Assembly (NCBI GenBank): GCA_018650165.1
Contig: JABIGM010000051.1
Location: 1 to 31,681, forward strand
From: Methanobacteriota archaeon
GTDB taxonomy: Archaea > Thermoplasmatota > Poseidoniia > Poseidoniales > Poseidoniaceae
Direction: 5' to 3'
DNA length: 31,681 nt
The first letter of the stretch is position 1; each line of letters opens with the position of its first letter. This document shows positions 1,177 through 15,921 of the stretch, piece by piece. Under the pieces are notes generated by a model, which was given only the letters and a program-made list of their open reading frames with translations, was not told the origin of the DNA and ran no database searches. Position numbers and translations under genes: made by a program.

Positions 1177-2055
1177 TTAGTCAAACCTTTGAAGTTGCAT
1201 TAATTCGTCAGTAGTTAGTGTCTCTCCACTCATCAACTTACTCATCAAGTCCTGAACCTCGACACGTGCGCCGCGTTGATTATCGCCAGTTATTGCTCCG
1301 CGCATTGCTCGCAGCATGTCTTGTATTGAGTGTAGACATCGTAGAGAAACTATGTAGAAGTGGTGTGCTTTGTCAGCCTCTTTCTTTGATTTACGTAGTT
1401 GGCGGTGAGCGGACTCTGCCTGTTCACGCTGCCTATCAACTTCCTTATTCCACTGAAGCATTAGTTCGTGTGCTTCTTGTGCTGCAACCGCTGACTTTTG
1501 CACTTCCTCGTGGGCAGCTTCTTGCTTTGCCATTGCTTCACGAAGTAACTCGCGAGCCTCCTTTAGTTCTCCATTAGAACCTTCAGAAGTTTTCATTTCA
1601 CGGATCTTAGAAGAAATTTCCTTCATTCGCTTCATGACTTTCTTTTCATTTTGCCCGGTGTGTTCACCGCGCTCGAATTCACTTTCGAGTTTTTGTAAAT
1701 CTCTGCGCAGAGAATGAATGGTTACTTTCTTCTCTTTTTTACCACGGTATCCCGATGAATGGTCTTCCTTTTCAGGACGTTCCGAGTCAAGCATAGATTT
1801 TGCTTGCTTCACTTCTTTGTTAGCATCGGAACGAATTGCTTTCTTTTCACGAACCAATTCGTTCATCTGTTCACGGATTTCGCGTTGTTGGCGGACATTC
1901 TGGATAAGTTCACGAACTTCAGCATTAAGTTCGTTTCGAATGACGGTATGCTCTTTGGTACGAGAATTCCAATCATCACGTGTAGTGCGGTACTGAGTAG
2001 CCTTTTGGTCAACCAGTTTGCGCTTTTCATCTAGAATTTCCTTGAGTTCTGCCAT
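1177..2055 (-). CDS. Archaeal coiled-coil protein, COG1340-like (paralog 1)
   Basis: Heptad-rich, with RNELNAEVREL / REQMNELV and AHEEVQ..AQEAHELM repeats and C-terminal GETLTTDELMQLQ, typical of COG1340. Start moved to ATG 2055 because the AGGTG SD overlaps the GTG at 2067. Confidence 0.75.
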   Translation of the reverse strand: MAELKEILDEKRKLVDQKATQYRTTRDDWNSRTKEHTVIRNELNAEVRELIQNVRQQREIREQMNELVREKKAIRSDANKEVKQAKSMLDSERPEKEDHSSGYRGKKEKKVTIHSLRRDLQKLESEFERGEHTGQNEKKVMKRMKEISSKIREMKTSEGSNGELKEARELLREAMAKQEAAHEEVQKSAVAAQEAHELMLQWNKEVDRQREQAESAHRQLRKSKKEADKAHHFYIVSLRCLHSIQDMLRAMRGAITGDNQRGARVEVQDLMSKLMSGETLTTDELMQLQRFD

Positions 2056-2117
2056 TATTCTACGCACCTGTTCGCTGTGTACTCCCGTACTCTAGCGACT
2101 GGGCGACTAACCTGTCC

Positions 2118-2144: not shown

Positions 2145-2489
2145 TCACAAAAATGGTATAATTGCCTTACTGGCCTTTGCAATTTTCAATCTGGCTTTAC
2201 CCAAATTACTACTGCTTGGGCATTGAATTACGATGGTATGTCCCGATTCTAAGCGTGATGCAATTATAGTACAGTCCTCAGCAACTATGGTTACCAGTGG
2301 CGAGTCAGGATTAAGTTCTAGAATCGCAGACATTGAAGTCGGCTTGAATTCATTTGATGTTCTTTCAACAGTGAAGCCTTCTGAATCCAATAGAGATGCC
2401 GAGATAACACACTCTCCATCGACCAGATCTGCAATAATTGCGCTTGCCACAAATTGGTGTGACCAGTGACAGGTGATGACTATTTGCAT
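2145..2489 (-). CDS. Roadblock/LC7 (MglB-like) domain protein
   Basis: 114 aa with a helix - SASLLDSEGFTV - helix - LVTIVAEDCTIIASRL - TIVIQC - SNLGKARLKIAKASKAI pattern, matching the Roadblock/LC7 layout (S/DxxG turn, C-terminal NLG helix). TAATG overlap with the upstream GNAT gene. Confidence 0.6.
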   Translation of the reverse strand: MQIVITCHWSHQFVASAIIADLVDGECVISASLLDSEGFTVERTSNEFKPTSMSAILELNPDSPLVTIVAEDCTIIASRLESGHTIVIQCPSSSNLGKARLKIAKASKAIIPFL

Positions 2490-2974
2490 TAGATATTTCC
2501 ACGCATAACGTAGCCAATACCAGATTTGTAGTAACCACTAAGAGTACCAATCACTTCCAAACCCCTTCTTCTATAGAATTCGATGGCATACTCATTGTCA
2601 CCTCTTACTTCAAGTTGGATCTCTGTGTGTCCGTCCTTTCGTGCAGCTTCCAGAAGTAAATTCCAGGCAGCCGAACCCAATCCCTTGCCTTTGTAGTCAG
2701 AATCAACAGCAAAAGCAACTACTCTAACTCGTGACTTACTGAATTTATTAGCCCATAATAGCCCTCGAAGCATACCATTTTTGTCGCGTAATACTAGATT
2801 ACCGCCCCATTCAGGTATTGGTAGACTTTTTACTGAAGCCTCAGCATATCGTTCACCGGTTTGGTCAAGAAATAATTGTTTGACTATTTCGATGGTCAAA
2901 GGGTCCAATTCTTTTGGACTTGTACCCTCTTCCCAAAGTGCCTCCATTGAACCACCCAGTACGGAACTCTTCAT
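2489..2974 (-). CDS. GNAT N-acetyltransferase, RimI/Ard1-like
   Basis: Acetyl-CoA motif A VVAFAVDSDYKGKGLG and motif B LEVRGDNEYAIEFYRRRG..GYY. ATGA overlap with the upstream gene. Confidence 0.88.
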   Translation of the reverse strand: MKSSVLGGSMEALWEEGTSPKELDPLTIEIVKQLFLDQTGERYAEASVKSLPIPEWGGNLVLRDKNGMLRGLLWANKFSKSRVRVVAFAVDSDYKGKGLGSAAWNLLLEAARKDGHTEIQLEVRGDNEYAIEFYRRRGLEVIGTLSGYYKSGIGYVMRGNI

Positions 2975-5064
2975 CTTTCTTTCTTCTTATACTGGCCGCG
3001 AGTTCCTCGGTTAGACCCAATTGCTCCTAGTTTCCGCATGCCTGCTTTCTTGGAACTTACGCGTTTTTCTTTCTTGGATGTAGGTTCGGATTCAATTGCA
3101 GAAAGTAGACCTGAAATATCACCCAGTGTCATTGGACCAGAGGATTTAGTTTTCGTTTCAGATTTATTATTTCGCGATTTACCTTGATGTCGGCCACGGC
3201 TTTTTTCATGTGAGTGTCCACCACTCTTTTTCCGTAGCCAAGCTTCTAGCCTTCCATTTTCACGGCGCAGTTTGTGCAAATCTCCACGTCGTTGACGTAG
3301 AGCACGCTGAATATTCTGCGTCCTGCGGTCATAGGATTTTGCTTCCCCTGCATTGATGCTCTTATCTTTCAGTAGAGGTTCTGCTTCCAGAAGTTTCGTG
3401 GTTGCCTCATCATGCTTTGTTTCAAAGAGTTTGAGTGCTTTAATTTCCTTTTTCTGTTCGGTTACCAATACAATGAATCGTTGATGCAATTCACTTGCCT
3501 CACGTGCTTTGCCATGCATGGCCTGTAATTCTAGGAACCATGAGAACTGTACCTTTTCACGGGAAAGTGATGGGACTCTATGTATGTCAATTTCTTCAGT
3601 CAGGCGCGTATATACCTTGGCTAATTCATCTTCAATCATATGGATTGGTAGAATTATATCAGAATTGATTTTATCTCTCGATGTTTTGACCTTATCGATT
3701 TCCTTATTTCTTTCTTTAAGATTGATGATGATGGACTTGTGCTCTTTGCGTAAATCCGATGTTTCTTCAATCACGCCCCGCATAGCCTTAGCCATTCTTA
3801 CATTTGATTGACGTTCAGAATCAAGGGCTTGCACGACCTTCTCCACTTCAATCATGTCTGCCTTTGTCTTTTCTAACATCTCTTTGACAAGATCATCCGA
3901 TTTGTCTCTTAAGTCGTGGAAAATATCTGCTGGCTCCATATCTTTTAATCTGTCAGCATCAATAGTTTCACAAATATTTTTCCAAGAAGCGCCCTCACCA
4001 AACAATTTCGTTGCACGAAGCAATTCATCTCTTATTTTCAGTTCACCAACAGCCCTTACCACTCGGCTAAGGTCATGGTCTGGGTTGAAAGGGTCTTCAA
4101 TTGAGAGGTGGTGTTCTCCCATTCTTGGAGGTTTTTCTTTCTGGCTATTTACCACATCAAGTGCTGATGGGGTTTCATTCATCCATCCCTTTTCATCTCT
4201 TGAAAGGGAACTTCCATTCCTGATTGAAATAATTTCAGTCTCCCAATCCATTGTTGCATATGTGTGGAAGAATGAATACAATAGTTCGGCAAGGGTCGTG
4301 TTTAAACGAGTTTCAACCTTTGCATCTTCGTTGATTGTAATATCATATTCCTTATCTCCAATTTTAATAATTGTTCGATCATTGCCGGATTGTAAATTGG
4401 GTATTATCCCTGATTTAATCAGGTGATTGATTACTAATACAGACCAAGCATATGATGACAAAGTACCACCTGGAGCATCAGAAAGATTCCTGTGAAGGGC
4501 CCAGTGTTTGACGCAGACAGCAAGTTGCCGTACTCGTTCATCGAGTTTGGCATATGTCTTCAGCAGTGTAGTATTATGCAGAGCAAGATTGTTATTTATA
4601 GAAATATCAACCTCTTTACCACTTCGTGGGTCAGTGAACTTGACAATAGGCACAGTCGCCCTTGTGAGTGCTTGAACCGCCTCCATGCCTTGTCCGCGAA
4701 GCATTCCGCTAATTCGTTTGACAACCTTCTTCTGATTAGCGCCTGGTAATTGCAGACACAAATCCAAATCTCCAGTCTTTAGTGAAAGTCCACTTTCTGA
4801 AGAACCAAATGGTGTCAACTTAGACCCCTTGAATTTTGAGGAGATGCTCTTTTCCAAATGATTGATTAAACTATCTTTACGCTTGATATCGCCGGTATTG
4901 AATTTATGATTAGAAATAGTGTGCCCTAGTGGCTTATCGTAATTCATTAGTGATTCCTTACTAGGTGTATTAAGTTCCAATTTACCAACAATCTGAGAAT
5001 GAAGGTTAGCAAATAAGTTAACATCTTCGGGAGAGAGGCCTGTAATCTCACAATTGTCACTCAT
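2971..5064 (-). CDS. Cid1/TUT4-7-like terminal nucleotidyltransferase (NTase + PAP-associated domain) fused to a COG1340-like coiled coil and a basic tail
   Basis: Motifs PFGSSESGLSLKTGDLD (D99, D101), VPIVKF, EVDISINNNLALHNT (D153), VKHWA, GTLSSY, LAELLYSFF, ISIRNG, EKGW and SIEDPFNPDHDLSR. Residues ~380-612 are coiled coil and 612-697 are K/R/G-rich. Confidence 0.9.
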   Translation of the reverse strand: MSDNCEITGLSPEDVNLFANLHSQIVGKLELNTPSKESLMNYDKPLGHTISNHKFNTGDIKRKDSLINHLEKSISSKFKGSKLTPFGSSESGLSLKTGDLDLCLQLPGANQKKVVKRISGMLRGQGMEAVQALTRATVPIVKFTDPRSGKEVDISINNNLALHNTTLLKTYAKLDERVRQLAVCVKHWALHRNLSDAPGGTLSSYAWSVLVINHLIKSGIIPNLQSGNDRTIIKIGDKEYDITINEDAKVETRLNTTLAELLYSFFHTYATMDWETEIISIRNGSSLSRDEKGWMNETPSALDVVNSQKEKPPRMGEHHLSIEDPFNPDHDLSRVVRAVGELKIRDELLRATKLFGEGASWKNICETIDADRLKDMEPADIFHDLRDKSDDLVKEMLEKTKADMIEVEKVVQALDSERQSNVRMAKAMRGVIEETSDLRKEHKSIIINLKERNKEIDKVKTSRDKINSDIILPIHMIEDELAKVYTRLTEEIDIHRVPSLSREKVQFSWFLELQAMHGKAREASELHQRFIVLVTEQKKEIKALKLFETKHDEATTKLLEAEPLLKDKSINAGEAKSYDRRTQNIQRALRQRRGDLHKLRRENGRLEAWLRKKSGGHSHEKSRGRHQGKSRNNKSETKTKSSGPMTLGDISGLLSAIESEPTSKKEKRVSSKKAGMRKLGAIGSNRGTRGQYKKKER

Positions 5065-5906
5065 TCCTCTTCACCTCCTGCTTCCTTTTTCGGATTTGTA
5101 GTTCGAGAACTCTTTCTTTCTTTCATGATTGCTTTGGAGGACATTCCGCCATTGCGAACTCTTTCAGCATCAATTACCAAATCATCGAATTCTTCCCTTT
5201 CGACTCGAGTTTTCCAAAACTCCAAAGCATCTTCGCTGGATGATAATGCATCCTCTAGGCGTTTCGTCCTAGAAGTTGACCTACGCCTAACTTCTTCCCA
5301 ACGAACAAAGTCTTCCTGGCTTTCTGCATTAGCACCAACCAGTTCAACCATTGCATCATGTGCTTTTTGTGCCGAATCGAGCAGACTTCTTGCTCTAGTC
5401 CGCGAATCATTCATTTCTTTTACCAATGGTTGGGAAGCAGATCTTTCTGAAACCCACTCCTCATGCTCTCTTATGAGGGATTTCATTTCATTGATGAATT
5501 TCTCTTCTGTTTTGTGGGTGCCGGCACTTGTTTCTAATTGGTTTTCAAGTGACTGCAACTTTTCAGAGAGTTTGTCTTTGGCCCATTTCGGGTCGGGGTT
5601 CTTCATACCCCCTTCTTGAATTAGTTGTTCACGAATTTCATTTGAACGCTCAAACAGGGTGCGCGCTTCTTTTTGAGCCGCATTTCGCTCACCTTTCAGG
5701 TTTGCAACTTTCACATTTATTTCATCACGATTCGCTCTTGCTGATTTTGCTTTTGGTTCAGCTTCAGCCAGCTCGACTTTTCGAGCCTCGAGGTCGTCTG
5801 GAATAATGTCGGCTAAGCGTTCTCTACGGTGCAGAATCGCTTGTGCCAAAAGTTTTGGTGAGACGGCGAGAAGGTCGTTCGCATCCATTGGAATCAATGC
5901 GGCCAC
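5061..5906 (-). CDS. Archaeal coiled-coil protein, COG1340-like (paralog 2); first gene of the operon
   Basis: RDEINVKVANLKGERN, LQSLENQLET..TEEKFINEMKSL and AQKAHDAMVEL. GTG start with GGGAGG upstream (alternative ATG at 5888). ATGA overlap with the downstream gene. Confidence 0.7.
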   Translation of the reverse strand: MAALIPMDANDLLAVSPKLLAQAILHRRERLADIIPDDLEARKVELAEAEPKAKSARANRDEINVKVANLKGERNAAQKEARTLFERSNEIREQLIQEGGMKNPDPKWAKDKLSEKLQSLENQLETSAGTHKTEEKFINEMKSLIREHEEWVSERSASQPLVKEMNDSRTRARSLLDSAQKAHDAMVELVGANAESQEDFVRWEEVRRRSTSRTKRLEDALSSSEDALEFWKTRVEREEFDDLVIDAERVRNGGMSSKAIMKERKSSRTTNPKKEAGGEEE

Positions 5907-5931: not shown

Positions 5932-5951
5932 ACCCACCCTTAAGGGTGGGT
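5932..5951. promoter_or_regulatory. Perfect 20-bp palindrome ACCCACCCTTAAGGGTGGGT in the divergent intergenic region; probable bidirectional promoter or operator
   Basis: Self-complementary. The central CTTAAG is TATA-like on both strands, roughly 35 and 45 nt from the two start codons. Confidence 0.55.
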
Positions 5952-14848: not shown

Positions 14849-14937
14849 GCTTTTGGTTCATCTGTTGCCTTCATATATGGCATGTTTGTGCGAGGCTTGC
14901 AAGTGGGGTAGCCCCCGCAATCTGAGAGTTGATTCAA

Positions 14938-15921
14938 ATGGCAGCAAAGAAGTTGAGTGCAAAGGCACGTGTAGCAGCACGTAAGCAGCGTGATAAGTGG
15001 AAGAATAAGCGATGGTTCACAATTCGTGCACCACGTCACCCATGGAACTTCAAGCGAATAGGAGAAACTCTCGGAGAGACTGATGAACATATCATGGGCC
15101 GCATTTACGAAATGACGCAACAAGAGTTCAGTGGCGATTTCACAAAGATGCACGTACTACTTCGTTTCCGTGTTACAGAAGTTGTAGGGCAAGATGCCTT
15201 AACCACATTCGTTGGACATGCTCACCAATCAGACCACACACGCCGTCAAATCCGTCGTTACCGTGGTAAGATTGATGACGTAGTCGATGTAGTAACTACC
15301 GATGGTTACCTAGTTCGCCTAAAGCCACTAATGATTACTGAGCGCCGATGCCAAACTTCGGTTAAGCAAGCAATGCGCTCGAAATCTGCGGAAATTATTC
15401 GTGGAATTGCGGCTAAAGCAAACTATTCACAATTACAAGAATCAATGCTTGGTGGAGACATGGAGACTGAAATTCGAAATGCAATCAAGGCGATATATCC
15501 TTGCCGCAATGTCGTAGTTCGTAAGAGCCAGCTCTTGCAATCTGGTGTTGTAACAGAGAAGGGGCCAACACTGGATGAAATTCATGCTGAAGAAGAGCGA
15601 AAAGAAGCTGAATTACAGGCCAAGAAAGCAGCAGCACTAGCAGAAGCCGGATCTGAAGATGCGGAAGAAGATGCTCCAGTTGAAGGCGATTTACTTGCAG
15701 CAGCAGAGGCAATGGAATCAATTTCTGAGAAGGAAGCGCCTGCAGCAGAAGAACCTGCAGCAGAAGAACCTGCAGCAGAAGAACCTGCGGCAAAGGAATC
15801 TACAGAATCAGAATCAGATTTGATGAAGTTGAAGAAGGACGCACTAGTCGAGAAAGCAAAGGCAGCAGGAGTCGCAACTTCTGGTACCAAAGCAGACATT
15901 GTCGCTCGTCTTCTAGAGTGA
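14938..15921 (+). CDS. rps3ae: 30S ribosomal protein S3Ae (eS1) with an acidic extension and a C-terminal SAP-like domain
   Basis: RDKWKNKRWFTIRAP, IMGRIYE, DHTRRQIRRYRGKIDDV, TDGYLVR and IYPCRNVVVRKS. Start is ATG 14938. Confidence 0.93.
   Translation: MAAKKLSAKARVAARKQRDKWKNKRWFTIRAPRHPWNFKRIGETLGETDEHIMGRIYEMTQQEFSGDFTKMHVLLRFRVTEVVGQDALTTFVGHAHQSDHTRRQIRRYRGKIDDVVDVVTTDGYLVRLKPLMITERRCQTSVKQAMRSKSAEIIRGIAAKANYSQLQESMLGGDMETEIRNAIKAIYPCRNVVVRKSQLLQSGVVTEKGPTLDEIHAEEERKEAELQAKKAAALAEAGSEDAEEDAPVEGDLLAAAEAMESISEKEAPAAEEPAAEEPAAEEPAAKESTESESDLMKLKKDALVEKAKAAGVATSGTKADIVARLLE
15739..15798 (+). repeat. 15-bp coding tandem repeat (CCTGCAGCAGAAGAA)x3 plus one degenerate copy, encoding PAAEE
   Basis: Visible directly in the sequence, within the eS1 linker. 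Confidence 0.95.

Follow-up and report, generated by a model that had tools for sequence, protein, structure and literature searches.

We analysed a 31,681-nt stretch of archaeal DNA (hereafter the window), which is the entire contig JABIGM010000051.1 of the Poseidoniaceae metagenome-assembled genome (MAG) GCA_018650165.1, with a focus on a gene on its reverse strand (2971..5064) that encodes a 697-aa protein. This protein is likely a chimeric enzyme in which a eukaryote-derived module on a native archaeal half adds nucleotides, most likely U, to RNA 3' ends. Specifically, the gene encodes a short leader, a nucleotidyltransferase (NTase) of the Cid1/URT1 type, a native coiled coil and a basic tail, and the orthologous open reading frames (ORFs) in Poseidoniaceae are 664-763 aa long. 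Public records name the enzyme as hypothetical, "nucleotidyltransferase domain-containing" or "DNA polymerase sigma". A first-pass annotation, made from the letters of the window alone, had described a Cid1/TUT-family nucleotidyltransferase in an archaeal genome at 3970-4917, a span corresponding to residues ~50-365 of the 697-aa ORF, and all peptide motifs quoted there were found in the translation of 2971-5064 on the reverse strand.

The family assignment was borne out by Pfam, PDB sequence and Foldseek matches to the terminal nucleotidyltransferase module, which occupies residues 40-370 (3955..4947, reverse strand). In Pfam, MTPAP-like_central (PF22600) matched residues 50-172 (3.5e-29, 102 bits against a cut-off of 27) and PAP_assoc (PF03828) matched residues 257-330 (4.7e-14, 52.8 bits against a cut-off of 22.6), and NTP_transf_2 (PF01909) was also above its cut-off (1.7e-6, 28.8 bits). 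PAP_assoc was found once in a six-frame search of the genome. As examined by phmmer against PDB sequences, the best match was Arabidopsis URT1 (8e-43, over residues 59-356), followed by TUT4 (6e-38), Cid1 (1e-37), TUT7 (5e-35), CutA (2e-34) and GLD-2 (4e-29); TUT1, MTPAP and Trf4 matched much more weakly than GLD-2. An AlphaFold2 model built from 28 orthologs had a mean per-residue confidence (pLDDT) of 80, with values of 80-95, mostly 84-95, in the enzyme part. When this model was used for a Foldseek search, URT1 (7xs4) was again the best match (TM-score of 0.89 normalised to the target, E = 7e-21), followed by CutA, Cid1 and TUT7, where the TM-scores were 0.82-0.85 for Cid1 and up to 0.86 for TUT7, all at E ≤ 1e-18. 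The matches to this family are far beyond chance.

The build of the module is that of a PAP/OAS1-type substrate-binding domain with a Pol-beta palm inserted in it. The palm with its G[GS] turn and DxD...D residues, the enclosing PAP-associated domain and the two-lobed fold, which together characterise the Cid1/TUT family, were all found. The first-pass annotation had named CCA-adding enzymes, CD-NTases and MNTs as the groups whose closer likeness would speak against a Cid1/TUT enzyme; none of these was among the Pfam, NCBIfam or PDB sequence matches or the top 50 fold matches, and the matches favour the Cid1/TUT clade. The NCBIfam search of the window's protein returned no family, and no similarity to RNase PH was found in the Pfam, NCBIfam, PDB sequence and fold searches. 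This part of the protein (residues ~40-370) is a true terminal ribonucleotidyltransferase module of the Cid1/URT1/TUT4-7 type.

The three catalytic Asp residues that the first-pass annotation had called intact are so both in a 26-domain alignment (11 archaeal and 15 eukaryotic domains) and in a site table of 21 loci from 7 genera. D99 and D101 (codons at 4762..4770, reverse strand), the metal-binding DxD corresponding to Cid1 D101/D103, and the third catalytic residue D153 (4606..4608, reverse strand), corresponding to Cid1 D160, were invariant in the alignment, and the whole set including the G-S turn (G87, S88) was invariant or nearly so. Of the 21 loci, 19 keep D99/D101/D153 in full; these residues and N164 were retained at every unambiguous position (ambiguous bases gave one X), and T165 was replaced by Ser in two loci. 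D101, D103 and D160 make up the catalytic triad of Cid1 (PMC13702519, a 2026 review). With regard to nucleotide recognition, residues 318-356 align without a gap to residues 324-362 of full-length Cid1 (4e7x_A, 405 aa), and therefore H330 (codon 4075-4077) within the recognition motif (residues 321-334; 4063..4104, reverse strand) corresponds to H336, and R334 to R340. N164/T165 likewise correspond to Cid1 N171/T172. In Cid1, the H336 imidazole bonds uracil O4, E333 matters for poly(U) activity, and substitution of H336 by Asn or Ala shifts the enzyme to ATP, whereas H336R broadens its NTP use (PMC13702519).

Given H330, U would be the most likely added nucleotide; the window's protein keeps both H330 and N164/T165, which are features of the uridylyl-specific subgroup. 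U specificity is thus a reasonable expectation for this protein, though not a universal one among its orthologs. The enzyme might also be active without being a uridylyltransferase and, as GLD-2 or CutA do, make tails of A, of C/U or of mixed composition; both of these enzymes were strong sequence and fold matches as well. Two observations weigh against a general preference for U: Asn327 stands where Cid1 has E333, and H330, which is His in 19 of the 21 loci, is Ile in one (genus g18) and Arg in another (g19), with Arg or Ile in a few database representatives too. With these differences, nucleotide choice may differ or vary. However, His occupies the Cid1 H336 position in the window's protein and in most of its orthologs, alongside N164/T165, and the U-specific enzymes URT1, Cid1 and TUT4/7 gave the best matches, so that we consider an enzyme of another nucleotide preference unlikely. 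Addition of U by an active enzyme remains our preferred interpretation. In the one ortholog pair that was unsaturated at synonymous sites, the ratio of nonsynonymous to synonymous substitution rates (dN/dS) was 0.036 in the NTase part, compared with 0.06 in the coiled coil; these values rest on one close group because most ortholog pairs were saturated at synonymous sites.

The gene has an archaeal setting. The gene order was the same in all 20 loci sampled, which came from 7 genera: PurP, DUF7121, orf114, GNAT, the NTase gene and CC281, with big804, IdeR, orf495, orf360 and an NTP-transferase on the divergent side. CC281 (5061..5906, reverse strand), which encodes a 281-aa coiled-coil protein and is a DUF7121-like paralog, lies upstream of the NTase gene, and a GNAT acetyltransferase of 161 aa (2489..2974, reverse strand; Pfam Acetyltransf_1, 1.4e-14) lies downstream; both are syntenic in these loci. 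The translational coupling on both sides that the first-pass annotation had proposed was read directly in the sequence as 4-nt ATGA overlaps of the NTase start with the CC281 stop and of the NTase stop with the GNAT start. The gene occupies the same operon in more than 100 Poseidoniaceae genomes, complete chromosomes included, and is carried by single-cell genomes and by chromosomes of 1.5-2.1 Mb (e.g., CM001443.1, a Marine Group II (MGII) chromosome record). Its GC content is like that of its neighbours, and the named relatives are Candidatus Poseidoniales or Poseidoniaceae.

These data bear directly on whether the module came from eukaryotic contamination or a chimeric assembly, as might be thought from the ~40% identity of the domain to eukaryotic proteins and from the 66 contigs that make up the 1.75-Mb MAG. 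The same fused ORF was found in the same operon in all 20 loci, in single-cell genomes and in 1.5-2.1 Mb chromosomes; it overlaps its archaeal neighbours by 4 nt, its domain forms a deep archaeal clade of its own, and the contamination of the MAG is 0.05%. We therefore exclude an artefact of this kind, the residual probability of which is negligible, and the argument already made against contamination in the first-pass annotation is strengthened by the synteny across 7-8 genera, the single-cell genomes and the closed or near-closed chromosomes.

The C-terminal half of the protein is older than the fusion. In genomes without the enzyme, a gene of ~270-440 aa was found between CC281 and GNAT that matches residues ~380-690 only. 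Such loci were examined in four genomes of Marine Group IIb (MGIIb), in family f2, and in Poseidoniaceae genera g17, g20, g21 and part of g14. Over their whole length, these shorter proteins could be aligned with the C-terminal halves of the fused ones, and the two groups have in common the junction motif DLFxDLR, FFELQ, RRExGRLEAW, an island rich in leucine and the RG at the end; several of the stand-alone genes still overlap the CC281 stop. The presence of a stand-alone ortholog in the same operon slot indicates that the operon gene was already there when the enzyme module joined it, in frame, at its 5' end. The statement that the enzyme is "fused to an archaeal-type domain" is thereby shown directly. 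From about residue 372 to its end at 697, the protein corresponds to a coiled-coil protein native to Poseidoniales that carries a basic tail; the order-wide gene is this native coiled coil only, and the enzyme module is limited to part of Marine Group IIa (MGIIa). The fusion onto a native gene is a new finding, and from its distribution and the trees the module appears to have been fused once.

The distribution of the module was followed through PAP_assoc (PF03828). Among 300 genomes of the order, it was found in 98 of 149 Poseidoniaceae (f1, MGIIa), in none of the 149 MGIIb (f3) and in neither of the two f2 genomes. In a phylum sample of 400 genomes, f1 alone contained it (43 of 58), with no match in 343 genomes of ~50 other Thermoplasmatota families, and 14 control genomes were also without a match. 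A motif scan of 185,579 prokaryotic species, one genome each, followed by tblastn confirmation, yielded 73 loci, all from Poseidoniales-type marine archaea; the scan depended on one motif only and may therefore have overlooked prokaryotic homologs of very different sequence. The first-pass annotation had pointed to MGII/MGIII genomes as the place to look for orthologs, and the enzyme gene proved to be confined to MGIIa (Poseidoniaceae) instead of occurring in MGII as a whole. When counted with a divergent query, the genera with the fusion were g1 (25/27), g13 (26/27), g15 (27/27), g16 (12/13), g18 (4/4), g19 (2/2) and g23 (8/9), while few or none were found in g14 (4/27), g17 (0/3), g20 (0/8), g21 (0/2) and g22 (0/1). 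Note that a record with a 61%-identical enzyme is labelled Thalassarchaeaceae at NCBI, which conflicts with the 0/149 for MGIIb and is probably a labelling difference.

We then placed gain and loss on a tree of flanking genes (seven genes, 2,607 columns, FastTree, rooted on MGIIb and f2). Genera g20 and g22 were basal; one clade grouped g23 (fused) with g17 and g21 (unfused), and the other held all remaining genera (fused), with one unfused g14 subclade inside. On this topology, the distribution is explained most economically by one gain and two deletions. Full-length proteins persist in g23, where DxD, third Asp, NN pair, IEDPF loop and His have all been replaced while the native C-terminal motifs are intact; specifically, DxD has become G-x-E, the third Asp is Arg and the recognition His is gone (L132:1552-3546, L133:1651-3651, L135:811-2826). 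The same active-site decay was seen in P0153, the representative of an unplaced lineage. Judged from these substitutions, the g23 and P0153 versions look like natural pseudo-enzymes.

Such versions count against a purely catalytic role. Dead full-length proteins persist in g23 and P0153 and other lineages deleted the module, suggesting that catalysis is dispensable in some genomes and that the domain may also have a non-catalytic role. Taken further, the NTase module could be mainly an RNA-binding or scaffolding domain of a coiled-coil complex, tailing not being the selected function. The persistence of the dead proteins in 8 of 9 g23 genomes, at least two deletions of the module without loss of the native gene, and the retention of RNA binding by Cid1 D160A (PMC13702519) would all fit this. 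On the other hand, the catalytic and NTP-binding residues are kept in the window and in 7 genera, down to 31% identity and with the low dN/dS of the NTase part, which is unexpected for a mere scaffold, and we judge a mainly structural module very unlikely compared with an active enzyme. Because active, dead, deleted and never-acquired versions all occur in the same operon, they provide natural experiments on function.

To place the module relative to its eukaryotic homologs, 1.84 billion representatives were searched exhaustively with HMMER. Among the 7,280 hits, the archaeal group spanned 514 to 222 bits; below it, after a gap, came sequences of ~186 bits and ~40% identity, of which all named ones were eukaryotic. 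These were from Amoebozoa (Phalansterium, Filamoeba), Streptophyta (Coleochaete, Psilotum), Fungi (Basidiobolus, Gongronella, Dentiscutata, Lineolata), Holozoa (Pigoraptor and a bivalve TUT4/7-like protein), Discoba (Pharyngomonas), Haptophyta (a pavlovophyte) and Ancyromonadida (Fabomonas). The archaeal sequences came out as one clade in a maximum-likelihood tree (84 domains), with a support of 99 in the SH-like approximate likelihood ratio test (SH-aLRT) and a stem of 0.79 substitutions per site. Two features of this tree limit what it says of the donor: the eukaryotic sister of the archaeal clade is weakly supported, with Pharyngomonas as a candidate at 90, and the tree is unrooted and took in the closest 83 representatives only.

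A pan-eukaryotic family, a narrow archaeal range and the closeness of the archaeal protein to one eukaryotic subfamily make a single eukaryote-to-archaeon transfer into an early Poseidoniaceae ancestor by far the simplest reading. The eukaryotic module would have entered this MGIIa ancestor by one horizontal transfer, joined the native gene in frame at its 5' end, and then passed down vertically under strong purifying selection, with at least two deletions and with inactivation in g23 and P0153. The reverse history, in which archaea inherited the module from early times (as a leftover from the ancestor of the eukaryotic terminal nucleotidyltransferases) or passed it to eukaryotes, draws on the same unrooted tree, in which the archaeal clade sits on a long stem and has no strongly supported eukaryotic sister. 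It is highly improbable, however, considering that the module was not found in the basal g20 and g22, in MGIIb, in ~50 other Thermoplasmatota families or among any other prokaryote hits of the single-motif scan of 185,579 genomes, that the unfused native gene is the outgroup state, that the protein is closest to one derived eukaryotic subfamily (URT1/Cid1/TUT4-7) and not equidistant to all terminal nucleotidyltransferases, and that its eukaryotic relatives span many supergroups.

The first-pass annotation had suggested acquisition from a eukaryote or a giant virus, and only the former part of this suggestion gained ground, in that the nearest outside relatives are eukaryotic. A viral donor, whether an archaeal virus or a giant virus infecting protists, would be compatible with a tree that does not pin down the donor, and giant viruses, which live in the same habitat, have many RNA enzymes resembling those of eukaryotes. 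Nevertheless, no viral relative was confirmed in an IMG/VR scan with the domain alignment, and no fold match was obtained at E ≤ 0.001 among the BFVD viral structures, both searches being of limited sensitivity; we hold a viral source to be quite improbable, and a cellular eukaryote remains the favoured donor.

The remaining parts of the protein are archaeal in character. The N-terminal leader (residues 1-39; 4948..5064, reverse strand) is archaeal-specific, with a conserved Cys and a W-P-x-L-H motif, and is predicted to be helical (AlphaFold2 pLDDT of 78-91); it had no counterpart among the 15 eukaryotic domains aligned. The native coiled-coil domain (residues 371-615; 3220..3954, reverse strand) starts with the DLFxDLR motif and is supported by the end-to-end alignment with the stand-alone genes, the AlphaFold2 model and hhalign; long helices were predicted at residues 390-469, 500-561 and 572-614, followed by a disordered tail. 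This K/R/G/S-rich tail (residues 616-697; 2974..3219, reverse strand) has a K+R fraction of 0.29 and a pLDDT below 50, and holds two conserved islands, an L-G-D-L-x-x-L-L motif and the terminal R-G, with L654, R686 and G687 conserved. The C-terminal half had no Pfam match, and an atlas search with it gave sub-threshold leads only, including a DUF7121/COG1340-like lead at 0.78. With hhalign, DUF7121 matched orf360 at 98% and CC281 matched DUF7121 at 96.5%, while the native half matched orf360 at 95%, DUF7121 at 61% and CC281 at 5%, although coiled-coil composition may inflate such profile scores. These profile probabilities (61-98%) suggest a relationship of CC281, the DUF7121 gene, orf360 and, more tentatively, the native half to DUF7121/COG1340-like archaeal coiled-coil proteins; the native half itself reaches no Pfam model. 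Note that one ortholog (L025, G016:C2, 8572-10167) is a 536-aa ORF truncated in the coiled-coil half.

Complex prediction pointed to CC281 as a partner of the native half. The pair scored 0.65 against 0.00 for the best control. Of solved complexes, 58 of 80 come up to this mark, and of mismatched pairs 2 of 110, counts that hold only roughly because our own alignments were used. Three runs agreed in at least 91% of contacts, with a partner pLDDT of at least 78. The predicted contacts join residues 466-519 (3508..3669, reverse strand; chain residues 95-148), the most conserved stretch of the coiled coil with the invariant E503 and F510, to conserved N- and C-terminal segments of CC281, and on both proteins the predicted interface coincides with the residues that are conserved best. 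The model supports binding of the native half to CC281; it must be set against this that the complex is a model and that paralogous coiled coils might pass too.

As to function, we propose that the enzyme would add non-templated nucleotides to RNA 3' ends, that the native half would tether it to a coiled-coil assembly with CC281, and that the K/R-rich tail may help to hold the RNA. With the enzyme tethered by its native half, substrate choice would lie with the native partner complex. The tails could mark RNAs for decay or processing, e.g., by the exosome or an RNase R-like nuclease. Both MGIIa and MGIIb have RNase PH genes of the exosome, whereas an RNase R-like gene (RNB) was found in 115 of 149 Poseidoniaceae against 2 of 149 MGIIb. 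The 692-aa product of this gene (G000:C60:10984-12048; L125:1592-3670, reverse strand) matched PDB RNase R at 3e-54 and DIS3 at 1e-30, and is nearer to solved RNase R chains than to eukaryotic DIS3/DIS3L2. At the level of genera, however, its pattern is unlike that of the enzyme (3/16 in g1, the window's genus, 0/3 in g18 and 38/43 in g14), which indicates that the nuclease is at most a facultative reader of the tails. We rejected the RNB nuclease as an obligate Dis3L2-like tail reader, since it is RNase R-like and does not track the enzyme. LSM/Sm-like proteins (PF01423) were found in three control archaea and in none of five Poseidoniales genomes (G000, G061, G090, G051 and G049), which is weak evidence given the short model and the six-frame search.

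The conserved coiled-coil operon probably acts on RNA. Going one step further, Poseidoniaceae may run a eukaryote-style RNA 3'-uridylation pathway, in which a captured TUTase, tethered by coiled coils (CC281 and its own C-terminal half, perhaps with GNAT and the Roadblock-like protein), tags specific RNAs for decay or control; we see this as evenly poised between holding and failing. The fusion gives a first functional handle on this conserved archaeal coiled-coil operon.

Comparison with known systems shows what is shared and what is new. Arabidopsis URT1 (PDB 6L3F, 7XS4), the best match in both sequence (8e-43) and fold (0.89), has the DxD...D triad, the GTLSSY helix and the IEDPF-x3-H-D-L-x-R recognition loop in common with the archaeal enzyme. 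URT1 is, however, a eukaryotic protein with a long disordered N-terminal region, whereas the archaeal protein has a short structured leader, an insertion of ~15 residues ahead of the recognition loop, a native coiled coil with a basic tail, and a place in a prokaryotic operon. S. pombe Cid1 (1e-37; TM-score of 0.82-0.85) has an equivalent triad and the equivalent residues N171/T172 and H336/R340, but is a stand-alone 405-aa enzyme without an RNA-binding appendage, while the archaeal enzyme is tethered to a predicted coiled-coil partner system. The catalytic modules of human TUT4/TUT7 are strongly similar in sequence and fold (6e-38 and 5e-35) and have the same His-based uracil recognition; they recruit substrates via zinc knuckles, a second inactive NTase module and Lin28, in place of which the archaeal protein has its coiled coil and K/R/G tail. 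The archaeal exosome (an RNase PH ring) and the class I CCA-adding enzyme act on RNA 3' ends, as the NTase module would, yet differ from it in fold and mechanism. The exosome adds tails by phosphorolysis in reverse and not by NTP-dependent transfer.

The feature is real and surprising: within a known enzyme family, it stands out by a new architecture and a new phylogenetic placement. Its evolutionary history is well supported, and its biochemical function we infer from its residues and fold. Poseidoniaceae are among the most abundant planktonic archaea. An intact and strongly constrained copy in such a globally abundant family would extend RNA uridylation to prokaryotes, and, if the proposed function holds, this would be the first time that NTP-dependent U-tailing of RNA is seen in a prokaryote. 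The gene would also be a rare domesticated eukaryote-to-archaeon gene transfer, and a clean, datable case in which the transfer was followed by fusion to a host gene. Enzymes of this family have been described as conserved in eukaryotes (PMC6240794), and a review on Cid1 makes no mention of archaea or prokaryotes (PMC13702519). Our literature searches on Poseidoniales/MGII nucleotidyltransferases, archaeal TUTases and COG1340/DUF7121 found no paper on this enzyme in archaea, and Kuchta 2009 (PMC2794190) had no match to terms for such an archaeal enzyme.

Several features around the NTase gene are worth recording. A Shine-Dalgarno-like site, GGAGGTGA (5071..5078, reverse strand), lies 6 nt ahead of the NTase ATG and within the codons of the CC281 GGEEE C-terminus, which read GGAGGTGAAGAGGAA in the window (5066-5078, reverse strand). 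CC281 orthologs order-wide all end in G-G-E-E-E or a near variant, and this conserved protein end may have been shaped by the ribosome-binding site of the next gene. In the 80-nt divergent promoter region between CC281 and big804, there is a 9+9 perfect inverted repeat, CCCACCCTT/AAGGGTGGG, at 5933-5950, and a second palindrome-like stretch, rich in G/C, lies nearer to the big804 start. Downstream of GNAT, orf114 (2145..2489, reverse strand) encodes a small operon protein that is possibly, and only tentatively, of the Roadblock/LC7 fold; Robl_LC7 matched three of five orthologs below the cut-off (E of 3.5e-4 to 1.4e-3), and the window's own orf114 had no Pfam match. The DUF7121 coiled-coil gene (1177..2067, reverse strand; Pfam DUF7121, 5.8e-15) is the last in the conserved gene row and is syntenic across the order. 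In three g14 genomes, an in-frame TGA was seen within an otherwise full-length DUF7121 ortholog match (G065:C2:307713-308594, G062:C23:77508-78389 and G069:C30:20235-20552).

The other genes in the window include PurP (DUF1246/DUF1297), ribosomal protein S3Ae, the FttA/aCPSF1 termination factor, DUF7121 and thymidylate synthase. An Rfam search of the window gave no match, and the only tRNA is at the window end. The S3Ae/eS1 protein, encoded at 14929-15921 on the forward strand, bears a C-terminal SAP domain (Pfam SAP, 2.2e-6, residues 297-330), which is unusual for this ribosomal protein.

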